This document shows, one piece after another, positions 488 to 64,000 of a DNA stretch of 64,000 bases (within the stretch, counting starts at the first letter, position 1; every line of letters starts with the position of its first letter). The notes beneath the pieces were generated by a model. It was not told the DNA's origin. It made no database searches and saw only the letters and a program-made list of their open reading frames with translations. Made by a program: the position numbers and the translations under genes. Origin of the DNA: Candidatus Falkowbacteria bacterium (GTDB lineage Bacteria > Patescibacteriota > Patescibacteriia > UBA11705 > JABHMO01); NCBI GenBank assembly GCA_018674305.1, contig JABHAL010000002.1:1286-65285 (forward strand), written 5' to 3'.

Positions 488-516
488 TTGACAAAACCAA
501 AAATGTATGCTATATT
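488..516 (+). promoter_or_regulatory. consensus sigma70-type promoter with extended -10: TTGACA, 17 nt, atGcTATATT
   Basis: -35 TTGACA at 488-493, a 17-nt spacer, TGn-TATATT at 508-516. No ORF lies downstream on the plus strand. Confidence 0.5.
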
Positions 517-522
517 GCTCAG

Positions 523-753
523 TCCTCCTTAAGGGCTTGTTACAGAAAACAGGTTCGTCACGAAACTCTAAAATCCTGTGATAGAATCTTCAAAAATTCA
601 TGAGGCAATGTATTAATATTGTTGAAAGAATTTTAGGAGATAATAGCTAAAATTTGAGAATTGCAGTAGAAGCTGTATTCAGTAACAATCCCTATATGGC
701 TGCACCTAAATCTGGAGGAGCCCCATTTGCACAGTGCATTTGGGGCATTTTTA
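523..753 (+). ncRNA. candidate small noncoding RNA of ~230 nt, possibly 6S-like; not classified
   Basis: The region starts just downstream of the consensus promoter and contains no ORF longer than 16 codons. Long-range complementarity links 552-562 with 683-693 (ttgttacagaa / ttcagtaacaa) and 533-538 with 708-716, which is compatible with an extended rod. It ends in an imperfect hairpin plus T-run at 721-753. Confidence 0.3.
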
Positions 754-768
754 TTCAAAATGTACTAA

Positions 769-1036: not shown

Positions 1037-1149
1037 GATATTACCTCCACTAAATTAACAGCTGTCACTAGAAGAATACAGTATATAACATAAATCTTAA
1101 ATTGTCAAGTACGTCGTAATGGTTCAATACCTTTGCAATATTAATGAGT

Positions 1150-1295
1150 TAAATTTTGCCTACTTAGCCACCTGGGGTTGAAAACCCCAGGCTATTTGTA
1201 TTCTAAACCCCCATAAATGGGGCTAAGTCTCTTCAGGCTACTTTAGTAGCCTTTACAAAACTTAGCCTGGCCCTTTCAGGGCCAGGTGGCTAAAT
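1150..1295. ncRNA. GC-rich multi-stem structured element of ~145 nt; unclassified candidate ncRNA
   Basis: A closing helix tagcca/tggcta encloses four hairpins: cctgggg-ttgaaaa-ccccagg, cccc-ataaat-gggg, ggctac-ttta-gtagcc and cctggccc-tttc-agggccagg. An extra ctaag/cttag pairing is also possible. There is no ORF, and GC is far above the AT-rich surroundings. Confidence 0.35.
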
Positions 1296-1472
1296 ACAAT
1301 AATTATGAACATTTATATCCTAGAATTAATTACATTTAACTCCACTACAAATGTTGCCAAGCTCTTGACCTTATTTCGGTACGTGATCTCACTTTACTTG
1401 TTTCATTACATATATTATAATTGATTTACAATCCTCCTCGCTCTGCCCCGAGCGGAAGGTGTGCTTCGCTAC

Positions 1473-1506
1473 AGCCCTAACCAGACAATCGGTTAGGGCT
1501 TTTTTC
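1473..1506 (+). terminator. rho-independent terminator, plus orientation
   Basis: agccctaacc-agacaatc-ggttagggc followed by TTTTTT. It is preceded by the small hairpins cgctc-tgcccc-gagcg and gaag-gtgtg-cttc. Confidence 0.5.
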
Positions 1507-1512
1507 TAACTA

Positions 1513-1591: not shown

Positions 1592-3061
1592 TTATTCTTT
1601 TGGTTTCATCAACGGAAAGAAAACTACATCACGAAGATTATCTTGCTCAGTCAGGATTGTTAAAATTCGATCAATTCCCATTCCCCAACCAGAAATTGGT
1701 GGCATGCCGTATTTCATTGAATCTACAAATTCTGGATCACCTTCCATGGTTTCGTCATCACCAGATTTTTTAAGTTTCGCCTGATCCTTGAATCGTTTTT
1801 CTTGATCTATTGGGTCAACTAACTCTGAATAAGCTTTGACAATTTCCCAACCACCGACAACCAACTGAAATTGGTCAACGATTTCTGAATCATCATCATT
1901 ACGTCGCGCCAAGGGCTGTAATTCAATTGGATAATGATATAAAAATACTGGATCAATAATTTTTGGTCGAGAAACTTTTTTGTAAAGGTTATCAATCAAA
2001 GTTGCCAGTCCCATATGCTCCATATCATCAACTTGAATCTTCTTCTTTTTCAAATCTTTCACTAAATCTTTTGGGTTCTTATACTTAGCAACGTCTAACC
2101 CACAATCTTTCTTTACCAACTCAATAAAGTCCACTCGCTTCCACGGAGTTTTGAAATTAACTTTCCGTTTTTTGCCATCCTTACCGGTAATTTCAAGTTC
2201 ATGTGGTAAATTTAATTTCTTAAAAATAAATTCAAACATCTTTTCAGTGAATTTTATATTATCTTCAAAATCCCAATAAGCACAATAATGTTCTAAATGA
2301 GTATGCTCTGGTAAATGTGATGGGTCAATACCTTCATTCCTGAATGCTTTGCCAATTTCAAAAATTTTATCATAACCACCAATGATCAATTGCTTCAATG
2401 GAAGTTCATGTGAGATTCGAAGAAACACATCAATATCTAAACCGTTATTATGGGTCTTGTAAGGTTTGGCATGCGCGCCAGTGGCACTATGCAGTAAAGT
2501 CGGAGTCTCAACTTCGAAAAAATCTTCTTGCCAATAAAACTCCCGCAGAGCTCTGATAAATTTACTACGGAGTTGAAAGCGTTGCATGGTTTCCGGATTG
2601 GAGATCAAATCCAAGTAACGCTGACGGTATGTTGCTTCCACATCTTTCAGTCCATGCCATTTTTCAGGTAATGGTTTCAAAGCTTTACCAAGAAAGGTCC
2701 ATTTATTAACAAGGATAGTTAGTTCACCTTTGTGCGTTACAAAAAGCTCACCTTCCACTCCAATAAAATCACCCAGATCAATTATTTTTTGTAATTGTTT
2801 ATAATCATCCTTACCTAAATCATCTTGCTTGAACGCAATTTGCATGCGACCAGAAAAGTCACTTAAGTGAGCAAAGGTTAATTTGCCCATATCACGAAAC
2901 ATTACTAAACGACCGGCAGTCTTTACTTTTTTGCCCTCCTTCATTTCTTTACATTCAGCCAGAGTCTGTTTCTTGTCAAACTTAGCTGGATAAGGCTCTA
3001 CTCCCATTGATTGTAGTTTTTCTAATTTTTGCAGGCGAACTGCTTCTTCGTTTTGTTCCAT
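1592..3061 (-). CDS. lysS: lysyl-tRNA synthetase, class II
   Basis: 489-aa ORF with an N-terminal anticodon-binding OB region and class II motifs. The C-terminus ends in the ...GIDRILTILTEQDNLRDVVFFPLMKP pattern typical of LysRS. Confidence 0.9.
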   Translation of the reverse strand: MEQNEEAVRLQKLEKLQSMGVEPYPAKFDKKQTLAECKEMKEGKKVKTAGRLVMFRDMGKLTFAHLSDFSGRMQIAFKQDDLGKDDYKQLQKIIDLGDFIGVEGELFVTHKGELTILVNKWTFLGKALKPLPEKWHGLKDVEATYRQRYLDLISNPETMQRFQLRSKFIRALREFYWQEDFFEVETPTLLHSATGAHAKPYKTHNNGLDIDVFLRISHELPLKQLIIGGYDKIFEIGKAFRNEGIDPSHLPEHTHLEHYCAYWDFEDNIKFTEKMFEFIFKKLNLPHELEITGKDGKKRKVNFKTPWKRVDFIELVKKDCGLDVAKYKNPKDLVKDLKKKKIQVDDMEHMGLATLIDNLYKKVSRPKIIDPVFLYHYPIELQPLARRNDDDSEIVDQFQLVVGGWEIVKAYSELVDPIDQEKRFKDQAKLKKSGDDETMEGDPEFVDSMKYGMPPISGWGMGIDRILTILTEQDNLRDVVFFPLMKPKE

Positions 3062-12439: not shown

Positions 12440-13531
12440 TTATGTTTCAATGTAATTCAGCTTCTTAAACACTGCCACTAAAATATTCTCCAAAAATTGA
12501 TCTCGGGTATGAATATCAATGTCCTTATCTACACCTTCATCTTTTTCCATATAACGCCACATTTTCTTTTTCTTATCCCACAAATCAGTATTCTTCATCC
12601 GACACCAATCTATTTCACCCTCGTCTGGATCTTCAACTAACCCATGGGCCAAGCTTCCTAGAAGCTGCACCCTTGATACGTAGGAATCAGCCTCATCTGA
12701 CAATTGATCATTCCACATACCCTCCGCTTCTTGGTAACTGACTTTTTTCAAGTCACGATAAACCTGCTCAGCTTTTTCTTGATTACCTAAAAAATATTCA
12801 ACTATAACTTGAAGTAAATAGTTTTCAGTCATTTGACTTGAATCTTCACCAAATTCACCTACTCTATTCATCCAAACTTCTGCCTCAACGTCATATAACT
12901 CGCTTTGCTGTATCTCACTATAAAAATCCTTAGCTCTTGCCATCTGTCCATCAAACACAAATGCCAGGACGCCATAAAGCTGTGAATTACAATAAAAATT
13001 TTCTGGTCCATCAAATCTATGTTTATATAAACCATCACTCTTGCACCTAATATCAATTAAGTGCAGAAAGCTATCCGTAAAACGCTCTTGCGGCTTAATT
13101 AAATTCATATTAATTGCAGATAAAAACTGTGTAGCTGAAGTTACCCGACTGACACCTGATTCAGATTCAACGAAATCATCCCATAATCCGGTATCGCCAT
13201 AAGCCGTTGTTTTAAATAACCTACCTGTATTTTCTTTGACTTCCTCTGATGGCCCGCTTCGTAGCTTTTCTAATAATTCATTTGGCTTCATCAACGGAAA
13301 AAATTCCTTAGTTTCAATAAAATTAACGATTTGTTCTTTTTTTGTTATATAGTCCCGCATTACCTGAAGTGCCTCCTTACTTCCCGCTTCCGCCTTCGCC
13401 TTAAGCTCAGCAAAACCTAAACCGCCTGAAATCACTTCTAACTCAGACATTAATTTATCAAAATGACGTTGCTGAACTTCAGTGAAGCTAGCGTGGAGTG
13501 CTTTTTCTTGTAATTCGGATTCAATTTTCAT
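12440..13531 (-). CDS. hypothetical protein, member 1 of a tandem three-gene family (conserved 76-aa N-domain, variable C-domain)
   Basis: 363 aa. The N-terminus MKIESELQEKALHASFTEVQQRHFDKLMSELEVISGGLGFAELKAKAEAGSKEALQVMRDYITKKE is near-identical to those of 13553..14284 and 14295..15407. Confidence 0.6.
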   Translation of the reverse strand: MKIESELQEKALHASFTEVQQRHFDKLMSELEVISGGLGFAELKAKAEAGSKEALQVMRDYITKKEQIVNFIETKEFFPLMKPNELLEKLRSGPSEEVKENTGRLFKTTAYGDTGLWDDFVESESGVSRVTSATQFLSAINMNLIKPQERFTDSFLHLIDIRCKSDGLYKHRFDGPENFYCNSQLYGVLAFVFDGQMARAKDFYSEIQQSELYDVEAEVWMNRVGEFGEDSSQMTENYLLQVIVEYFLGNQEKAEQVYRDLKKVSYQEAEGMWNDQLSDEADSYVSRVQLLGSLAHGLVEDPDEGEIDWCRMKNTDLWDKKKKMWRYMEKDEGVDKDIDIHTRDQFLENILVAVFKKLNYIET

Positions 13532-13552
13532 AAACCAACTTTATAATTCAAT

Positions 13553-14284
13553 TTATTCAGGAAAATATAGCATATAATTATGTTTTCTTGAAGATAGCTC
13601 CCCAGTCTGTAATTCTGCTTCGACATGTACCCTTACTTGCTCAGGCTCATTATTAATATGCTCGACTGCTGTTATGCTTATTGATGTGACTTCTTCTTTA
13701 TCAAGCAAAGATTGCAATCGACTACCGACAATGTTTTCTGGATTCCTCTTACTCTTATCAAGTTGATAATGTTTATGCAATTCTAATCCAAAAATCGACT
13801 TAACAGCCAACGTAGTGATAAAACCGTTCAAAACTTGTTGAACATGATCAGTCTTAATTAATTGATCTGAAAAAAGCCAAAGCGGAGTATTGTCAAGCAT
13901 TTTTACTTTATAGAGTAATCCACGACTATCCTCTTGGGTAACTTCTTCAACTTCACACATCTTCCCATGGTATGGTTTACCTGGATGCCAAACCATCCCC
14001 TCATCACCAACACCAATAAAATATGACTTCCACTCTAAATTAGTCCCTAAAGGTATTTCTTTAGTTTCAATGAATTCAACAATCTTTTCTTTCTTAGCGA
14101 TATAATCACGCATTACTTGAAGCGCCTCTTTATCCCCTGCTTCTGCCTTTGCCTTAAGCTCAGCAAACCCAAAACCATCTGAGATTACTTCCAACTCAGA
14201 CATTAATTTATCAAAATGACGTTGCTGAACTTCGGTGAAGCTAGCATGAAGTGCGCGTTCTTGTATTTGCTCTAGTGATTTCAT
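13553..14284 (-). CDS. hypothetical protein, member 2 of the family (different C-terminal domain)
   Basis: 243 aa. It shares the N-domain, but its C-domain is unrelated to members 1 and 3. Confidence 0.6.
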   Translation of the reverse strand: MKSLEQIQERALHASFTEVQQRHFDKLMSELEVISDGFGFAELKAKAEAGDKEALQVMRDYIAKKEKIVEFIETKEIPLGTNLEWKSYFIGVGDEGMVWHPGKPYHGKMCEVEEVTQEDSRGLLYKVKMLDNTPLWLFSDQLIKTDHVQQVLNGFITTLAVKSIFGLELHKHYQLDKSKRNPENIVGSRLQSLLDKEEVTSISITAVEHINNEPEQVRVHVEAELQTGELSSRKHNYMLYFPE

Positions 14285-14294
14285 TTTATAATAG

Positions 14295-15407
14295 TTAATT
14301 TTTTATTTTTAATTTCTCGAAAATCGCAGTTAAAATAATATCCATTAACTCATCCGAAGTATTATAACCTTTTACACTGTTCTCTGTAGCTCGCCAACAA
14401 CCAGACTCAGGCTCAACCCAACGTGGGTCTTTTTTTAATTCCTGCCATTTTTCTTTTGCCTCATAGGGACTACCCAAAATGGCTTCAGCCATGATACCCA
14501 TTAGTTGATCAGTTGAAGTTCTCTCTACCTCTTCATCGTGATGATGGTAATTAGACTGTTTCCAACCAAGTTTTGGATCATAATATTCCTGTTTAAGATT
14601 TCCAAATCCCTGTCGAGCTTCTTCTTCCTGACCAAGAAAAAAGTTTACTAATTGATACAAAAGTTGATCTTTAGAATACAAACTTAAATCAGTAAAGTTT
14701 AATGTTTTATTTTGAGTTGTATCTGGGGTCACACTAGTAAACCATGAATCAAACTCTTCCATATAAAACTTAAGTTTCTTTAAATCTGACAAGCGCTGAC
14801 CAGCAGTATCAGCAAGATCATTTTTGGGCTGGATCAAAACCATCAAAATACTCAAAAATTGCCCTTCAGCATCATACTCTTCAACCCCAAGACTCAGATC
14901 GGCACAATTATATAGCCTGTTTTCTCGGTTATACATTTTACTTTCCCACGGCTGTGTTATTGAAGTTTGTATGTCACCTGTCAATTGGCCTGCCAATTCA
15001 AGAAGAACACAATTCCTATGGGTCACTGCATTACCTACCCCACCAAGTTTTTGGGTTAACATTTGCTTTTGCTTATCAAAGGCTGAAGTATATAACAATA
15101 CTTGTAATTTTTCTTTGGCTTTTTCAGCTGTGCCTTCATTTAAAATATTTCGCATAGTTTCAGCGTCTATATATGGCATTCGCTTGGTTTCAATAAACTC
15201 CACAATTTTTTCTTTCTTTGTAATGTAATCCCGCATAATTTGAAGTGCTTCTTTACTACCCAACTCAGCCTTTGCTTTAAGATCAGCAAATCCTAAACCA
15301 CCTGAAATCACTTCTAATTCAGACATTAATTTGTCAAAATGTTGTTGCTGAGCCCTATTAAAGTCAACCTTTAGTGCACTTTCCTGAATTTGTTCTAATG
15401 TTTTCAT
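14295..15407 (-). CDS. hypothetical protein, member 3 of the family
   Basis: 370 aa. The N-domain is shared, and the C-terminal third resembles member 1 (FFLGQEEEARQGF... versus FLGNQEKAEQVY...). It starts 4 nt after the helicase stop. Confidence 0.6.
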   Translation of the reverse strand: MKTLEQIQESALKVDFNRAQQQHFDKLMSELEVISGGLGFADLKAKAELGSKEALQIMRDYITKKEKIVEFIETKRMPYIDAETMRNILNEGTAEKAKEKLQVLLYTSAFDKQKQMLTQKLGGVGNAVTHRNCVLLELAGQLTGDIQTSITQPWESKMYNRENRLYNCADLSLGVEEYDAEGQFLSILMVLIQPKNDLADTAGQRLSDLKKLKFYMEEFDSWFTSVTPDTTQNKTLNFTDLSLYSKDQLLYQLVNFFLGQEEEARQGFGNLKQEYYDPKLGWKQSNYHHHDEEVERTSTDQLMGIMAEAILGSPYEAKEKWQELKKDPRWVEPESGCWRATENSVKGYNTSDELMDIILTAIFEKLKIKN

Positions 15408-15410
15408 GTT

Positions 15411-18389
15411 TTACAATTTTCGAAATTCACAAATATCTTTAAAGTCACAATGCCCACAAATGTGTTGACTGGGTTTAGGATCAAAATTTTGCTTTTTAAT
15501 TTGTTCAATATTATCCAAAAACCTTTGTTTGAGTTTTTCCTTGTCTTTAGAGTTGCCAAGAAAAGAGACTTGGCTGTCATCATCAAGAAAATAATAGGTT
15601 AATTTTTCTAACTTTATATTCAAAACTTCTTCAGCTGCAATCTGATAGAACATTAGCTGGCGTCGGTCCTCTGTGGATAATTTTTCTTTAACTTGCCCAG
15701 TTTTGTAATCAATAATTTCAAACTGCCCTTTTTCTAATTCATCCACTCGGTCAATACGCCCAACAAAGGTGTATTCCCCAATCTTCAATCGGAACGACTG
15801 TTCCAATAATTTAACTTTTGGTTTGTTTTTTTCAAAACCTTGGTGGAAGTTTTTTAATAAATCTTTGCCTTTTTCTAAATACTCCTCTTTTTGTTTTGCA
15901 TTAACATACCAATCATCCTGCCAGTTTTCATTATAAACTTCATATAACCTTTCTAACGACAATAATCTATTTTGGTTTGCTGGTTCGCGAGACATCCCTG
16001 TCTCGCTCCCTCCTACCGCAAATATATCTTGTTGGGTATGCAGTCCAACCGTAAAACATTCTTCCAAAAATTTTTGTAAAGTATTGTGAATAGTTGAACC
16101 AAATGAAAAATAGTGATTACCAAAGGTTGGAATTTTTAAAACATTGGCAAACTTGTACTTCAAAGGACAAGTTTCATAAGTCTGCATTTGTGAATAACTA
16201 AAATTGCGCGGTAGCTGATATTCAAAAGCCTTAGAGTCATCCTTTTGTACTCGCTCAACTGTAGGCTCAGCTTTTCCAGATTCTTCAGGTTTATTATACC
16301 CTAATTCTGTTAAAAAGCGAGACAATTTCTTTTTTCGTGCTCCACCATAGTCATCAGCTGAAGTGAAGAACAATCCCCTTTTTGCTCTGGTCATTGCTAC
16401 ATAAAATAATCTCCGTTCTTCCTCTAAATGAAAATCACCTTCTGAGGAGTCTTCTTTTATCAAAGAATCTGGAATTTCAATTACCTCTTTACGCTGATCG
16501 GTCGGAAATTTTCGATCAACCAAACAAGAAACGAACACATAATCAAATTCTAAACCCTTGGCACTGTGAATTGTCATAATACGCACCATGTCCGGACCAG
16601 TTTCCACGTCAAACGCCAATTTCCCACTTTCGCCCGATTGCATTTCCATATTCAAAAGCTCCATTAAGTCACTAAGCCTCGGATCCTCATACGACATTTC
16701 CACTTCTTGAATTTTCTTGAAAAATTGTTGAACAAAATCTAGCGTTTCTTTTGCTTTTGCTGGTTCCAAATCATTCAAATACTCCAAATAACCTGAGCCG
16801 TACAAAAAACTTAATAAAACTTCAGTCGGTTTTTTATTTTGTGCTAACTGAGTATCTTTTTCAACTTGAACTAAAATATTGTTAATTGACTTCAAAGTTT
16901 GTTCAGTTAAGCCTGGAACTGTTGAAGCCTGCTTTAATGATTCGAATATAGATATTGATTTTCTCTTAGCTAAATGAACCAATTTAACAATTTGTTCAGG
17001 CTCAATATTTAGAAATGGCAAGTTTAGAATTCGATAAACTGCCGCGCTCTCATGATAATTATCCAGCAACTTGAAATAATTAATAATATCAACCACAACT
17101 GATTTATTGTACAACCCTCGCATAGCCAGGAATTGGTACGGAATTTGAGCTTGTTCTAAATAATTAATAAAAATATTGGCGCTATCATTAGCCCTAACTA
17201 AAATTGCTATATCTGACCACTCCGCTTGCTGATCTTGTTTTAATTTTATTATTTTTTGAATTACTGCCTTTGCCTCTTCCTCAACAGACGACAAATGATA
17301 GTGAACAACCTCGCCTTTTTCAGAAACGTTAGATTTTAATTTTTTATCAATACCTAATTTTTCCTCCAATCGATATGGATTGTTTTGTAAAATAAAATTG
17401 TAGGCTAAATCTAGAATTTCCTGTGTAGATCGATAGTTTTCTATTAATACAACTTCTTTAGCCGTTGGGTAATCTTTTTTGAACTGCATTATATTAGAAA
17501 TCGAAGCTCCACGAAACTTGTAAATGCTCTGATCATCATCTCCTACAACTGTGATATTGTTTTTGGGTGTGGCCAAAAGTTTAATTAACTCGTATTGAAC
17601 AAAGTTTGTATCCTGAAACTCGTCAACCAAAATGTGTTTGAACTGTTGACGATATTTAGCCAAAATTAATGGGCGCTTTTTAAATAATTGAATTGTATAA
17701 TTTATTAAATCAGCGAAATCCAAGCTCTCATTATCAATTAAAATTTGCTGATAAGTCTGATAGGCATTGGCAATTTCCTCAATTCGAAGAATTTCTTGTT
17801 TTAATATTTCTTTTTGATTAGCTTCGTCAACCTTACTGAAATCTATTTTGTTTACGAAATCGTGAACATCATCATTTAACTTGATTTCCTGTGCATATTT
17901 TAAATAATTTTCAGGATAAATACCTTCATCCTTGCAACGAGAGAAATGCTTTAACAGTGCGTGGATAAACTTGGTTGGATTACCTAACGGCTGATAATAT
18001 TCTAATTTGAACTTGTCCAAATTTTTCCTCACCAAGAGCCAGGCCTCCGTCCCATCCACGAGTTTGTAATTATTTGGCAAACCAATATCCAGAGCATGCC
18101 GTTTCAAAATTTTGTCACAAAAAGCATGAAAAGTTGAAATCCACAAATCAACATAACCATATGGAAGCATTTGATCCACGCGCTCTTCCATTTCCTGCGC
18201 AGATTTTTCAGTAAAAGTTAAAGCTAATACTTCATCAACATTAGCATTTTTTTCAGTAATCAAATATGCAATTCTGGCAGTTACAACCCGAGTCTTCCCC
18301 GTACCAGCTCCAGCCACAATCAACTGAGGTCCATCTTCGTGAATAATGGCTTGCTTTTGTTGTTCATTTGATTCAGAAATTAGACTCAT
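15411..18389 (-). CDS. UvrD/PcrA-type SF1 helicase fused to a C-terminal PD-(D/E)XK (Cas4/RecB-like) nuclease with a Cys4 cluster
   Basis: AGAGTGKT Walker A near the N-terminus and helicase motifs through ~aa 700. The C-terminus carries YETCPLKYKF...CGHCDFKDIC, a Cas4/AddB-like Fe-S nuclease signature. Confidence 0.8.
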   Translation of the reverse strand: MSLISESNEQQKQAIIHEDGPQLIVAGAGTGKTRVVTARIAYLITEKNANVDEVLALTFTEKSAQEMEERVDQMLPYGYVDLWISTFHAFCDKILKRHALDIGLPNNYKLVDGTEAWLLVRKNLDKFKLEYYQPLGNPTKFIHALLKHFSRCKDEGIYPENYLKYAQEIKLNDDVHDFVNKIDFSKVDEANQKEILKQEILRIEEIANAYQTYQQILIDNESLDFADLINYTIQLFKKRPLILAKYRQQFKHILVDEFQDTNFVQYELIKLLATPKNNITVVGDDDQSIYKFRGASISNIMQFKKDYPTAKEVVLIENYRSTQEILDLAYNFILQNNPYRLEEKLGIDKKLKSNVSEKGEVVHYHLSSVEEEAKAVIQKIIKLKQDQQAEWSDIAILVRANDSANIFINYLEQAQIPYQFLAMRGLYNKSVVVDIINYFKLLDNYHESAAVYRILNLPFLNIEPEQIVKLVHLAKRKSISIFESLKQASTVPGLTEQTLKSINNILVQVEKDTQLAQNKKPTEVLLSFLYGSGYLEYLNDLEPAKAKETLDFVQQFFKKIQEVEMSYEDPRLSDLMELLNMEMQSGESGKLAFDVETGPDMVRIMTIHSAKGLEFDYVFVSCLVDRKFPTDQRKEVIEIPDSLIKEDSSEGDFHLEEERRLFYVAMTRAKRGLFFTSADDYGGARKKKLSRFLTELGYNKPEESGKAEPTVERVQKDDSKAFEYQLPRNFSYSQMQTYETCPLKYKFANVLKIPTFGNHYFSFGSTIHNTLQKFLEECFTVGLHTQQDIFAVGGSETGMSREPANQNRLLSLERLYEVYNENWQDDWYVNAKQKEEYLEKGKDLLKNFHQGFEKNKPKVKLLEQSFRLKIGEYTFVGRIDRVDELEKGQFEIIDYKTGQVKEKLSTEDRRQLMFYQIAAEEVLNIKLEKLTYYFLDDDSQVSFLGNSKDKEKLKQRFLDNIEQIKKQNFDPKPSQHICGHCDFKDICEFRKL

Positions 18390-28456: not shown

Positions 28457-29287
28457 TTATAACTTGAACAATTTCTTAGCATTTTCATCAGTTTGTTTTT
28501 CAACTTGTTGAACGGACAAACCCTTCAATTCAGCAATCTTGGCAATCACATATTCCACAAAGGCCGGTTCGTTCCTTTTTCCCCTATGTGGAACAGGAGT
28601 TAAATACGGACAATCTGTTTCTGTAACAATTTTTTCTAGTGAGGTTTGTTTAATCACTTCATGATATTTTTCTGCCTTGTTAAATGTGATCACACCATTA
28701 AACCCTAAATAAAAACCTAAATCAACTAATTCAACAGCTTGTTCGGCTGAACCAATAAAACAGTGAATAACTCCCCCCTTTTTAATTCGATTATTTTTCA
28801 AAATCTGAATTAAATCCTCATACGCTTCACGACAATGAAGAATCATAGGTAAATCCAATTCATTCGCCAATTCTATATGTTTGATTAGAACTTGTTTTTG
28901 TTTTGTAATCTGCTCATCTTTATCATCTTCTGTTAAATGGTAATAATCCAACCCCGTTTCACCGATAGCGACTATTTTATCTGAACTTTTTCCAAGTTGT
29001 AAATATTTATCATAATCAAATTCTTCCGCCCGAGAAACAAACTCCACTTTTTCTTTATTATCAACTTGATGAGAGACTTCCCTTTCTTGTAAATGAATTG
29101 GATGCAAGGCAACAGCAACATAAACACCAGATTCATACTTTTCTGCCATTTGAACTGCTCGTTCACTGGTCGAGTACTGCGAACCAACCAAAATCATTCC
29201 AACGCCTTTTTCTTGCGCGCGTTTAATCACTTCGTCTGAGTCTTCTTTGTATGCGCTAAAGTTTACATGCGCATGAGTATCGAACAT
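28457..29287 (-). CDS. tatD: TatD-family metal-dependent hydrolase
   Basis: MFDTHAHVNF... HxH motif; 276 aa TIM-barrel hydrolase. Confidence 0.8.
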   Translation of the reverse strand: MFDTHAHVNFSAYKEDSDEVIKRAQEKGVGMILVGSQYSTSERAVQMAEKYESGVYVAVALHPIHLQEREVSHQVDNKEKVEFVSRAEEFDYDKYLQLGKSSDKIVAIGETGLDYYHLTEDDKDEQITKQKQVLIKHIELANELDLPMILHCREAYEDLIQILKNNRIKKGGVIHCFIGSAEQAVELVDLGFYLGFNGVITFNKAEKYHEVIKQTSLEKIVTETDCPYLTPVPHRGKRNEPAFVEYVIAKIAELKGLSVQQVEKQTDENAKKLFKL

Positions 29288-29340
29288 ACAATTAATAAGG
29301 CTAAATATGGCGAAACAAGGTAATAAGGCACAACATAAAG

Positions 29341-31819: not shown

Positions 31820-32110
31820 AGCCTTTTGAGGAGAAAGGCAAAGGTAAAACTGATTTTGAAAACTGAAGGAGGGAATCACGCTTAAACCTACAATTAGAGC
31901 GAGTAATTAAGGTCAAATGGCCTTACCACTACGAGTTGACGTCAACGTAACGTCCCGTAGGGAAAAAAACAAAGCACCGCGCTAGGCACACAATCTTTGG
32001 AAAGAGGAATAGACAGCTTGTCTGTCAATCCCGATAAGGCAACCTGTCATCCACAAGATGAAAGGAAAACAAGATTGGTCCAATAAAGCCGGTGCATTTT
32101 TTTACAAAAA
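31820..32110 (+). ncRNA. candidate noncoding RNA of ~290 nt, GC-rich and ORF-free; unclassified
   Basis: No plus-strand ORF. Contains the perfect palindrome gttgacgtcaac plus several hairpins. It lies antisense-downstream of a minus-strand gene terminator. Confidence 0.3.
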
Positions 32111-33429: not shown

Positions 33430-33667
33430 AAGTTCAAAACAATAAACAATTTATTACTTGGGGTCTAGGGCGGAGTTCGCCGAAGCAGACGCTTCAAACA
33501 TGCCAAGACCCACGCGATTTGAGCCCCAGCGCTTTTTGCGCTACTTTTTGGCGCCAAAAAGTAGCAAAATAAAAAACGACTCTGCCTCTTCAAATAAAAA
33601 ACACTTTTTATATCCTGAAACAAGTTCAGGATGACAAAAAGTGTTTTTTTGTTGCTGAAAACTAAAC

Positions 33668-46288: not shown

Positions 46289-46402
46289 ACGTGGACTCGA
46301 CAATCTTATTGTCGAGTTTTTAAATTCAGAAAACATTGACAAATAACTAGAAATAAGGGAAAATAACCTAATTGAACTTTAACAACAAAACAAGGGGGAA
46401 AC

Positions 46403-46951: not shown

Positions 46952-47066
46952 AAACAACTCATCAAAACCAGCACCACACCGTGCTGGTTTTTTCATTGAC
47001 AAATCATAAAAAATAAGGGAAAATAACCTAATTGGACTTTGACAACAACCCATTGAGGAGGCCTTA

Positions 47067-48887: not shown

Positions 48888-48998
48888 ATAACACAAACCA
48901 GCACCACACCGTGCTGGTTTTATTATTGACAATAACGTAAAATATTAGTAAGATACAATGATTATGAACTTTTACAACAAAATGACAAGGAGGCCCAA

Positions 48999-59437: not shown

Positions 59438-59675
59438 AGTATGCTTCTGATAATAACCATTTATTACTTTCTGTATTGAAACACAATTTGAAATAATTCC
59501 CGTTCGAACTTACTGAATAATAATAAACCTTGTCCCGGCCGATTCTTTCGCTATTAACCAAATTCACTTTATTTATTGAATGTTTTTTATTATTCCAAGA
59601 AAAAGAAAGCGGCATCACCCGATCCCGCATAAAAGCAACTAAAACTTCGATTTGTTGATTGATTTGTTCTAACAT
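59427..59675 (-). CDS. small protein translationally coupled to dinB, possibly YolD-like
   Basis: 82-aa ORF overlapping the dinB start by 11 nt. YolD-like genes often precede Y-family polymerases. Confidence 0.3.
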   Translation of the reverse strand: MLEQINQQIEVLVAFMRDRVMPLSFSWNNKKHSINKVNLVNSERIGRDKVYYYSVSSNGNYFKLCFNTESNKWLLSEAYYDN

Positions 59676-60172
59676 ATCATCATTCTAAACTACCCGATAA
59701 ACTTCACCAAGTTTTAAAAGGAAAATCAGGTAGTATTTTTTTATTCCGACAATCTCTTTAGAAATTTTAAAATTGATTTCTTGATATCTTCAGTATTCAT
59801 ACAAATAATAAGGCTAAACAAAGCTAGACACGGCAATAAGGCTCCACTGCCAAAGACTAACCAAGTTTAAAGATTAATCTTAATAATTAATTCTGGAGTT
59901 AAAGGGATGTAGGTTGGTGTCATAAAAATAATAGGGCTAAACAAGGCTAGATAGGGCAACAAAATTCAATTACAATTTGTTCTCCAAATTTAAACCTTGA
60001 ATCATTAGTTTATAATAGTACTCGATTAAACATTAATTGTTAAATCCTGCCACAGGGCAACTACTGTACGATAAGCTTTTTTCATTTTTCTTTTATGCAT
60101 ATTTTTGAAAGGTGGAGGAGAGTTAAATATCCCATGCTTATAAAATATCTAACCCTCTCTCCTTATGACTTA

Positions 60173-62679: not shown

Positions 62680-63948
62680 TTACTCAGTCTTATCCAATTC
62701 TGCTGCTGCGTCTGCAGCATCGCCCTTGGGCAAGAACCTAGCCAATGCTGGCAAGACCTTGGCTGCGTCGCCCAGGCCATCAACCAAACGATGCGCAATC
62801 GCCAATCCGGACTGACCTTCCAGAACAGCTAAATCACCAAATTCCTTGGCAACCATCTTGGCAACTTCCACATCACCCAAGCGATTGATAGCTGCAGCAA
62901 CATCGCCCTTCATGACCTCAGCAACCTTGACTGCGGCTTCAACCTTGGCGGCATGAATACGCTCAGCCAGTGCCTGTAGCTCGCCCTGGTACGCTACAGA
63001 TTGCTCCTGGTCTGCCTGCTTAATCAGCAGACGCTCTGCAGAAAGAAGCTTCTCCACTTCCAGATCTGACTGCTGAGCAACCAACTTTGCCTCAGTTAGA
63101 GCCAGCTCAGCTGTCTGACGATCCTTGCTTCGAGTAAGGTCAGCTTCCTGCTGTGTCCTCTTGAGATCAAGATCACGCTGTAACTCAGCCTTTCTCTTGG
63201 CAGCCTCAAACTCGCTACTGGCTTCAATCAGCTTGTGTTTGTGATCCTGCTCAGTTCCTGCCTGCTCACGAGCATGCTCAAGCTCTTCAGTACGCAGATG
63301 ACGCACTGCCTCAGCTTCACCACTGTCCTCAATGGTTTTTTCGTTCAACCTTTCCATCGAGGCGTCATGCTCAGCTTTTTCAGTTTCACGTACGGCAACT
63401 AACTCCTTTCGACTCAGCACCTGTAAGGCTTCAGTTGCCACGACTGTACGCTGCTTGCGTTCCAACTTCAGGTTTTGCTGAACAATGTCAAACCGCGCCT
63501 CATCCAGCATACGCTGGATTTCAGGATCAATAACTGTCACCTTGAGCAGGTCGACATCGTAGATACGCATGTTGTTCTCATCAAAGAACATTCCCTTGCG
63601 ATCTTCACCGTCAACCTTTTTGCCCAGAATGGCGTCACGGATAATCTCCGTGTAACCAGCTTCAAATTCCGAAATGGTAAAGCCCTTGGCTACACCCTTG
63701 ATCACGCTACGTACGTGATCACACAGGAATTTAACATAGTTGTCAACTGCAAACCACTTGATCTGATCCTCAGGGTCTTCAGCTTCGAAATTTACTCGAT
63801 AACTAAGTTTCATGCTGGCTCTCACCAGATCACTGGTCACGACCTCAATGATGTCGCTAACCTTGTTGCCATGAATACATAGATACACAGTTGGCAACAG
63901 CCTATCCGTAGTCTTGGGCTTCCCCATAGACAAAGCCATATGCTCCAA
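62680..63948 (-). CDS. GC-rich coiled-coil protein with an SPFH/band-7 or major-vault-like N-region; the start may lie beyond the window
   Basis: 422-aa ORF at ~50% GC with a long E/A/K/R-rich helical C-terminal half. The codon at 63946-63948 is TTG rather than ATG, so the N-terminus is uncertain and the gene is possibly partial. Confidence 0.35.
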   Translation of the reverse strand: MEHMALSMGKPKTTDRLLPTVYLCIHGNKVSDIIEVVTSDLVRASMKLSYRVNFEAEDPEDQIKWFAVDNYVKFLCDHVRSVIKGVAKGFTISEFEAGYTEIIRDAILGKKVDGEDRKGMFFDENNMRIYDVDLLKVTVIDPEIQRMLDEARFDIVQQNLKLERKQRTVVATEALQVLSRKELVAVRETEKAEHDASMERLNEKTIEDSGEAEAVRHLRTEELEHAREQAGTEQDHKHKLIEASSEFEAAKRKAELQRDLDLKRTQQEADLTRSKDRQTAELALTEAKLVAQQSDLEVEKLLSAERLLIKQADQEQSVAYQGELQALAERIHAAKVEAAVKVAEVMKGDVAAAINRLGDVEVAKMVAKEFGDLAVLEGQSGLAIAHRLVDGLGDAAKVLPALARFLPKGDAADAAAELDKTE

Positions 63949-64000
63949 CTCTTCATCGTATTCCAGAGTAATTGAAGCTGGGCCAACAACAACTCTACTC

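Follow-up and report, generated by a model that had tools for sequence, protein, structure and literature searches.

The window, the whole stretch of DNA analysed here (64 kb), derives from a marine member of the Patescibacteria (CPR) with a tiny genome, annotated as Candidatus Falkowbacteria. Almost every gene of the window lies on the - strand. The gene order at the locus is lysS (1592-3061, - strand), 555 non-coding bases, a 69-aa Zn-ribbon ORF (827-1036) and serS, which starts at 213. Four NCBI MAGs and many metagenome contigs encode exactly this LysS, and the nearest other species reaches 87% LysS identity. The Zn-ribbon ORF is an orphan, its sole database match being near-identical.

The spacer between lysS and serS (214-1591) measures 1378 nt in the window and holds orphan and ncRNA-like content. 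It is 140 nt long in a relative whose LysS is 87% identical (L109, 11474-11613) and about 2.2 kb long at another locus (L008, 5501-7687), where it contains two other ORFs that are unlike the genes of the window. Since one spacer has 140 nt and the other has different genes, the 1.3-kb spacer of the window is a lineage-specific islet, and comparison of these loci points to the lysS-serS spacer as an insertion hotspot. The terminator CCCCTTGGGGG at 281-293 is ancestral and is also kept in L109.

GC content is 36% in the window, a value that replaces the 33% quoted in an earlier, sequence-only reading, and only 44-45% across the element when taken 100 nt at a time. That reading had described positions 1150-1510 as a single GC-rich, multi-helix element, possibly a lineage-specific non-coding RNA (ncRNA). 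The interval consists instead of two unrelated things, a block at 1115-1378, which is the conserved unit, and a small-RNA-like unit at about 1428-1506; positions 1379-1510 are missing from the other copies of the block and have a promoter-like site of their own. A search for tRNA and tmRNA genes found none, and all 64 kb of the window are free of tRNA genes. Rfam 15 covariance models, which the same reading had proposed as a check, recovered no family: at the gathering threshold neither the window nor two further contigs, L083 and L108, had a match, and a permissive search of 200-1700 (E up to 10) gave sub-threshold matches at chance level at best.

The small-RNA-like unit has its own promoter-like site, TTTACT-17-TATAAT (1393-1421, + strand, 10 of 12 matches), which lies outside the repeat and is absent from copies 2 and 3. 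The candidate small RNA (1428-1506, + strand, about 80 nt) has a 5' hairpin with CCUCCUC, an anti-Shine-Dalgarno-like motif, and then an intrinsic terminator at 1473-1506; the latter had been noted before, and our + strand scan marked it as terminator-like (1473-1500, with a T-run after it). The candidate folds at -30.6 kcal/mol (z = -4.0), is absent from the other copies of the block, and its only Rfam match is at chance level. The whole unit (1393-1506) converges on the 3' end of lysS, whose own intrinsic terminator (1511-1548, - strand), a hairpin followed by UUUUU as read from the sequence, lies between lysS and the repeat. Two terminators separate lysS from the 264-nt block. The spacer holds another candidate RNA at 488-756 (+ strand), where a near-consensus promoter, TTGACA-17-TGnTATATT, precedes a strongly folding stretch of 235 nt (-73.1 kcal/mol, z = -5.2) with paired 5' and 3' ends and a terminator at about 720-755. 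It has no Rfam match and converges on the Zn-ribbon ORF.

Several features elsewhere in the window deserve mention in their own right. GC-rich, hairpin-rich intergenic stretches occur at 31917-32100 and 33468-33560, with no Rfam match at E up to 0.1. A repeated terminator fused to a TTGACA -35 box (46965-47002 and 48895-48932, 95% identical) and a 66-nt repeated leader (46334-46399 and 46994-47059) precede paralogous WD40/beta-propeller genes. Three tandem paralogous genes at 13299-15413 (363, 243 and 370 aa) have a common 239-nt segment at 75-77% identity and no Pfam domain in any of them. A 50-nt repeat starting with CATACAAnTAATAAGGCTAAA is found at 29285-29334, 59798-59847 and 59921-59970, the copies being 68-80% identical and two of the three lying within the intergenic region 59438-60172. 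Finally, a 966-aa protein encoded at 62680-64000 and beyond (L104, 3858-6758) has a PF11978 MVP_shoulder domain and a weak PF17795 Vault_3 match; major-vault-protein domains are unusual in a CPR bacterium.

Anatomy and fold of the 264-nt block

The block (1115-1378, 264 nt) is non-coding, has dyad symmetry and is delimited by homology to a second copy. Compared with its own reverse, it matches over 1153-1299 (E = 2.5e-7), and the arms 1161-1194 and 1263-1296, which are 79% complementary, form a nested inverted repeat. The block is built of two inverted modules flanked by imperfect terminal inverted arms. The left terminal inverted repeat (1115-1140, + strand) reads CGTAATGGTTCAATACCTTTGCAAT and the right one (1353-1378, - strand) CGAAATAAGGTCAAGAGCTTGGCAAC, with an outward-facing TTGACC at 1365-1370; an alignment by eye of 1115-1140 and the reverse-complemented 1353-1378 shows agreement at about 17 positions out of 26. 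Both arms contain GAGTTAAAT.

Each module consists of a unit hairpin of about 30 nt, an A/U-rich linker of 11-16 nt and a small GC hairpin, and the units follow the consensus TTAGCC-ACC-TGGnnnT-GAA-AnnnCCA-GGCTA. Unit 1 (1164-1201, + strand) reads TTAGCC-ACC-TGGGGTT-GAA-AACCCCA-GGCTA with a U-rich tail, that is, TTAGCCACCTGGGGTT-GAA-AACCCCAGGCTA on the + strand; its hairpin occupies 1171-1191, and it scores 60.4 bits with the covariance model of the unit. Its partner in module 1 is the hairpin CCCCA-TAAA-TGGGG seen in the fold at 1209-1222 (+ strand). Unit 2 (1256-1293, - strand; TTAGCCACCTGGCCCT-GAA-AGGGCCAGGCTA on that strand) has its hairpin at 1266-1286, the tail CUAAGUUUUGUAA and a score of 59.7 bits. 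The partner of unit 2 in module 2 is the hairpin AGGCTAC-TAAA-GTAGCCT (1235-1252), which the folds of both strands place inside a helix CTAAGT/ACTTAG (1223-1265, assigned to the - strand). The stem tops of the two units differ at three fully compensated pairs. A terminator scan flagged unit 1 on the + strand and unit 2 on the - strand, so that they face each other, with CUAUUUGUAUU or CUAAGUUUUGUAA following the 9-bp GC stems; the U-tracts are interrupted and begin 3-5 nt past the stem. No sigma-70-type promoter-like site with at least 9 of 12 matches was found inside 1115-1378 on either strand, and neither end of the block has a terminator.

The + strand of 1140-1310 folds at -64.6 kcal/mol (z = -5.9), a value equalled by none of 200 shuffles, and the - strand folds better still (-75.7 kcal/mol, z = -7.8). 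The + strand structure is exactly the one drawn in the sequence-only reading: a closing helix of 7 bp (TTAGCCA/TGGCTAA, 1164-1170 with 1287-1293) encloses four hairpins, at 1171-1191 (9 bp), 1209-1222 (5 bp), 1235-1252 (7 bp) and 1266-1286 (9 bp), the third of them within the 6-bp helix 1223-1228/1260-1265. All hairpin loops in the fold of the block are 3-4 nt long. The absence of coding capacity is likewise borne out, with stop codons abundant in all six reading frames of 1080-1400. The closing helix is simply the pairing of the two TTAGCCA feet of the inverted units. The multi-helix fold is a consequence of nested inverted repeats and no evidence for a dedicated ncRNA gene.

GGCTA/TAGCC motifs are concentrated in the block, with seven within 150 nt against about one per kb elsewhere. 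A DNA uptake sequence was considered and dropped, as GGCTA is not enriched genome-wide. The GTTRRRY/RYYYAAC motifs of an integron attC site are unmatched and there is no integrase; an att or dif site was also considered and dropped. A DnaA-box cluster or replication origin was set aside, as the locus shows no switch in gene strand or GC skew.

Other copies, borders and possible strand constraint

Copy 2 of the block was found in L105 (9701-9963) and in five others (L084, L090, L091, L106 and L107). It differs from copy 1 at 13 positions over 264 nt (about 95% identity), and 11 of 12 substitutions are transitions. Homology between the two runs from CGTAAT (1115) to TTATTTCG (1378) with sharp borders, and divergence is uniform, at about 5% in the arms and in the core. 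Alignment of window positions 1102-1378 to L084 gives 93.5% identity over 277 nt and no further similarity, the flanks being unrelated. Copy 2 lies between divergent genes, a 537-aa FAD-oxidoreductase gene, with the block upstream of it, and small orphan ORFs; both flanking genes are transcribed away from the block. The exact LysS of the window and the FAD protein next to copy 2 come from the same MAGs, as their paired NCBI accession blocks show (MBT7348195.1 goes with MBT7348983.1, for instance, and MBT5503514.1 with MBT5503125.1), and copy 2 therefore belongs to the same species.

Copy 3 (L108, 9590-9810) lies 8 kb from copy 2 between convergent genes and is diverged and rearranged. It keeps the order unit, linker, hairpin, and its modules point outwards, in the opposite relative orientation to those of copy 1, with no closing helix. 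Its forward unit carries a compensated change from U-A to C-G. In about 98 kb of sequence from the species, the covariance model of the unit recovers six units in all, spread over three loci. Two independent assemblies break within the copies: the NCBI contig behind L004 ends at about window position 1199, inside copy 1, and that of L108 has its first base 63 nt into copy 2.

The unit covariance model found nothing in roughly 130 kb of relatives' loci, and blastn of 201-1600 found nothing in 78 lysS loci of other species. The search for homologs proposed in the sequence-only reading thus turned up further copies in the same species and no conservation in the loci of relatives that were searched. 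GenBank phages, queried in distant mode, gave no match to the block or to the phage region described below; in viral sequences, a relaxed unit pattern produced nothing beyond chance matches in coding DNA, and scans with three other parts of the block came back empty. A metagenome scan with the unit pattern returned L084, L088 and four high-GC chance matches in coding DNA.

The unit-pattern search also yielded a phage-like contig with tail-fibre, protease and HNH genes (L083, IMGVR_UViG_3300037067_000188; the sequence is also in L088). An intergenic region of this phage (10566-10756) contains one hairpin unit of the host type, adjoining a GCCCCT-ATA-AGGGGC hairpin and five GGCTA/TAGCC motifs, with a gene start about 20 nt downstream. 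The order of its elements, hairpin, linker and unit, is reversed relative to module 1, and the contig shows no similarity to the host loci beyond the hairpin module. The shared module suggests a possible link between phage and host.

Tandem hairpins of variable sequence in CPR bacteria and phages are also a feature of TIGR-Tas arrays, which are recognised by an adjacent Tas gene with a Nop domain and by hairpins that enclose two 8-12-nt spacers with box C/D (Faure et al. 2025, PMC12045711). The variable palindromic hairpins of the block, their relative in a phage and the UG...CCA motifs within the units would all suit a guide-RNA array of this stem-loop type or an element resembling an IS110 bridge RNA. 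Neither a Nop-domain (Tas) nor an IS110 gene is present within 10 kb of copies 1 and 2 or in the 64-kb window, the loops of 3-4 nt are too small for dual spacers, no spacers flanked by box C/D are present, and there is no regular periodic array. IS110 bridge RNAs are likewise known from CPR bacteria and their phages. We regard this explanation as highly improbable.

At copy 1, GTACGT directly adjoins either border of the block (1109-1114 and 1379-1384) as a perfect 6-bp direct repeat and a candidate target-site duplication; the borders of the block had been set independently of this repeat, by homology to copy 2. The hexamers flanking copy 2 (GAGTTA and TCATTA) agree at three of six positions, so the perfect repeat is found at copy 1 only. 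No true empty site was found within the species. A promoter-like site for the Zn-ribbon ORF, TTGACA-17-TATACT (1080-1108, - strand, 11 of 12 matches), lies outside the repeat with its -35 box 6 nt from the left end of the block, and copy 2 has a TTGACA-17-TATAAT site at an equal distance of 6 nt. Removal in silico of copy 1 and one GTACGT would bring this - strand site and the + strand site at 1393-1421 back to back, with their -35 boxes 14 nt apart. In this arrangement, the two sites at the lysS locus would be divergent. The 6-nt spacing to TTGACA at both full copies could reflect a promoter-linked function instead of random insertion.

One such function would be that of a double-stranded DNA platform on which a regulator or nucleoid protein acts at adjacent divergent promoters. 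Both full copies lie in divergent-promoter regions and end 6 nt short of a consensus -35 box, which fits this proposal, as does the density of GGCTA/TAGCC motifs in the block and in the phage region. Yet the genes flanking the copies are unrelated, and the unit is asymmetric: its conserved 3-nt ACC is confined to a single arm, as would fit a hairpin more readily than a duplex site with two-fold symmetry. Compensated variation in the stem tops would not be expected of a sequence-specific duplex site either, and we consider a duplex platform quite improbable.

Alignment of eight units showed 95.8% of stem cells paired and four of nine pairs changed on both sides, a covariation score that none of 500 shuffles reached; with the 3' partners slid out of register, pairing collapsed. 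Compensatory changes between copies thus support hairpins 1 and 4 of the sequence-only reading, the units of about 30 nt. Where a stem is changed on one side only, the result is G.U on the module's own forward strand in five of six independent cases. Three of these are in copy 2 (unit 1, unit 2 and the P3 helix, 1223-1228 with 1260-1265), one is in the reverse unit of copy 3 and one in the unit of the phage contig. The exception is a polymorphism in L107. In the P3 helix, the sole change in copy 2 (at 1262) leaves G.U on the - strand only, and the change in unit 1 gives G.U on the + strand only. This own-strand bias is no more than suggestive (about p = 0.1). If real, it would mean that the hairpins are important when single-stranded, one half of the block on one strand and the other half on the other, and it hints at a function at the level of RNA or single-stranded DNA over purely selfish DNA.

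These data bear on the idea of a multi-copy family of structured ncRNA genes, that is, sibling sRNAs transcribed from the - strand like their neighbours and folding into a multi-helix junction. The very stable fold, stronger on the - strand, and the covarying unit hairpins speak for it, as do the three of four stem changes between copies 1 and 2 that leave G.U on the - strand. Against it, the halves of the block appear to be constrained on opposite strands, the change in unit 1 being G.U on the + strand only; neither strand has a promoter-like site of the strength sought above, the 3' end of the junction has no terminator, and two terminators lie between lysS and the block. Both genes flanking copy 2 are transcribed away from it, copy 3 has its modules in the opposite relative orientation with no closing helix, the arms outside the fold are conserved as much as the core, and an Rfam match is absent. 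We therefore judge such a family unlikely. The discrete ncRNA over 1150-1506 of the sequence-only reading is not supported, for the same want of a promoter, an end terminator and an Rfam family; the halves of the conserved block are inverted copies, each apparently constrained on the opposite strand, and the block recurs with sharp borders and uniform divergence of ~5% at unrelated loci of the same genome. What stands of that proposal is a structured, non-coding and lineage-specific sequence, and the alternative of a structured DNA, for which it had allowed, holds up.

A further possibility is a functional bidirectional terminator or insulator cassette, selected at each site because it stops transcription from either side. 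Like bidirectional intrinsic (Rho-independent) terminators, the block has GC-rich stems and U-rich tails on both strands, and both units are terminator-like on their own forward strands. The small GC hairpins of copy 3 and of the phage region, with U-rich linkers, stand directly after upstream genes, and the strand-specific G.U pattern is also in keeping with termination. On the other hand, the tails are interrupted and offset from the stem, and two good terminators already precede copy 1. Copy 2 lies upstream of promoters and not downstream of genes, and there is nothing obvious for it to terminate because both neighbouring genes point away. Selection for termination would also leave unexplained why about 50-80 nt of arms and an identical sequence are conserved at unrelated loci, the conservation extending to sequence as well as structure. 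In our assessment, a selected cassette is rather unlikely.

Nature of the repeat

The block recurs at unrelated loci of the same species with sharp borders, has dyad symmetry and contains a compensated unit hairpin. We consider it to be, with a probability of about 60%, a lineage-specific dispersed palindromic repeat that resembles a non-autonomous mobile element of the MITE or REP/BIME kind. At the lysS locus, its insertion would have separated two divergent promoters that stood back to back and would have duplicated GTACGT. The hairpins would be important when single-stranded, those of each half on that half's own strand, and for transcription entering from either side the units would be inward-facing intrinsic terminators or insulators. 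Read-through of the repeat may lead to termination or insulation by its hairpins.

REP, BIME and REPIN sequences of proteobacteria, which are mobilised by RAYTs, are likewise extragenic, imperfect palindromes of 30-40 nt in which the foot is conserved and the stem varies with compensation. They too are arranged as inverted pairs with short linkers in a mosaic fashion (head-to-head in copies 1 and 2 and tail-to-tail in copy 3 of our repeat), and they can act as terminators or mRNA stabilisers. Our units differ in that the 5' tetranucleotide is TTAG or TAAG and not GTAG, with one degenerate unit reading GGGA, and REPINs lack the arms of ~50-80 nt (copies 1 and 2) and the possible 6-bp target duplication found here. 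Copy numbers in classic REP or MITE families run to tens or hundreds, whereas three loci with six units were seen in about 98 kb of this species. Gene and Pfam tables for the sampled loci, roughly 100 kb of the species, contain no annotated transposase or RAYT (Y1 transposase) gene.

With MITEs such as the Neisseria Correia elements, ERIC/IRU, and the pneumococcal BOX and RUP, the block has in common its small size (264 nt) and non-coding nature, its imperfect terminal inverted repeats and long-hairpin fold, and its intergenic position beside promoters with a candidate target-site duplication. It is also lineage-specific, breaks assemblies and is dispersed at unrelated sites of one genome. Unlike MITEs, it has no known parent insertion sequence whose ends match, only one of the two full copies shows the target duplication, and the hairpin modules also occur alone, in the phage contig, and rearranged, in copy 3.

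More speculatively, and at low odds, the conserved asymmetric hairpin unit (TTAGCC-ACC-TGG...CCA-GGCTA) may be what a hairpin-specific enzyme or binding protein recognises, a factor that this marine CPR bacterium would have in common with a phage; the element would then be a promoter-targeting palindromic mobile element of a reduced, symbiotic genome, inserting 6 nt from -35 boxes. The factor could be an ssDNA transposase, of the HUH or another type, or else act in RNA processing or termination.

CPR genomes are usually considered streamlined and poor in mobile DNA. To our knowledge, no palindromic repeat family as described here is known in CPR/Patescibacteria, and a literature search for one found none. 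The block is a new lineage-specific palindromic repeat that was previously mis-assigned as a single ncRNA. For annotation, this removes a false lead and shows that a striking multi-helix fold in an AT-rich genome can be a mere nested inverted repeat. The repeat family appears to break metagenome assemblies and marks lineage-specific islets of orphan genes. Its fixed spacing to -35 boxes hints at promoter-targeted insertion or an effect on expression, and the hairpin module common to the phage contig could help to link phages to their CPR hosts.
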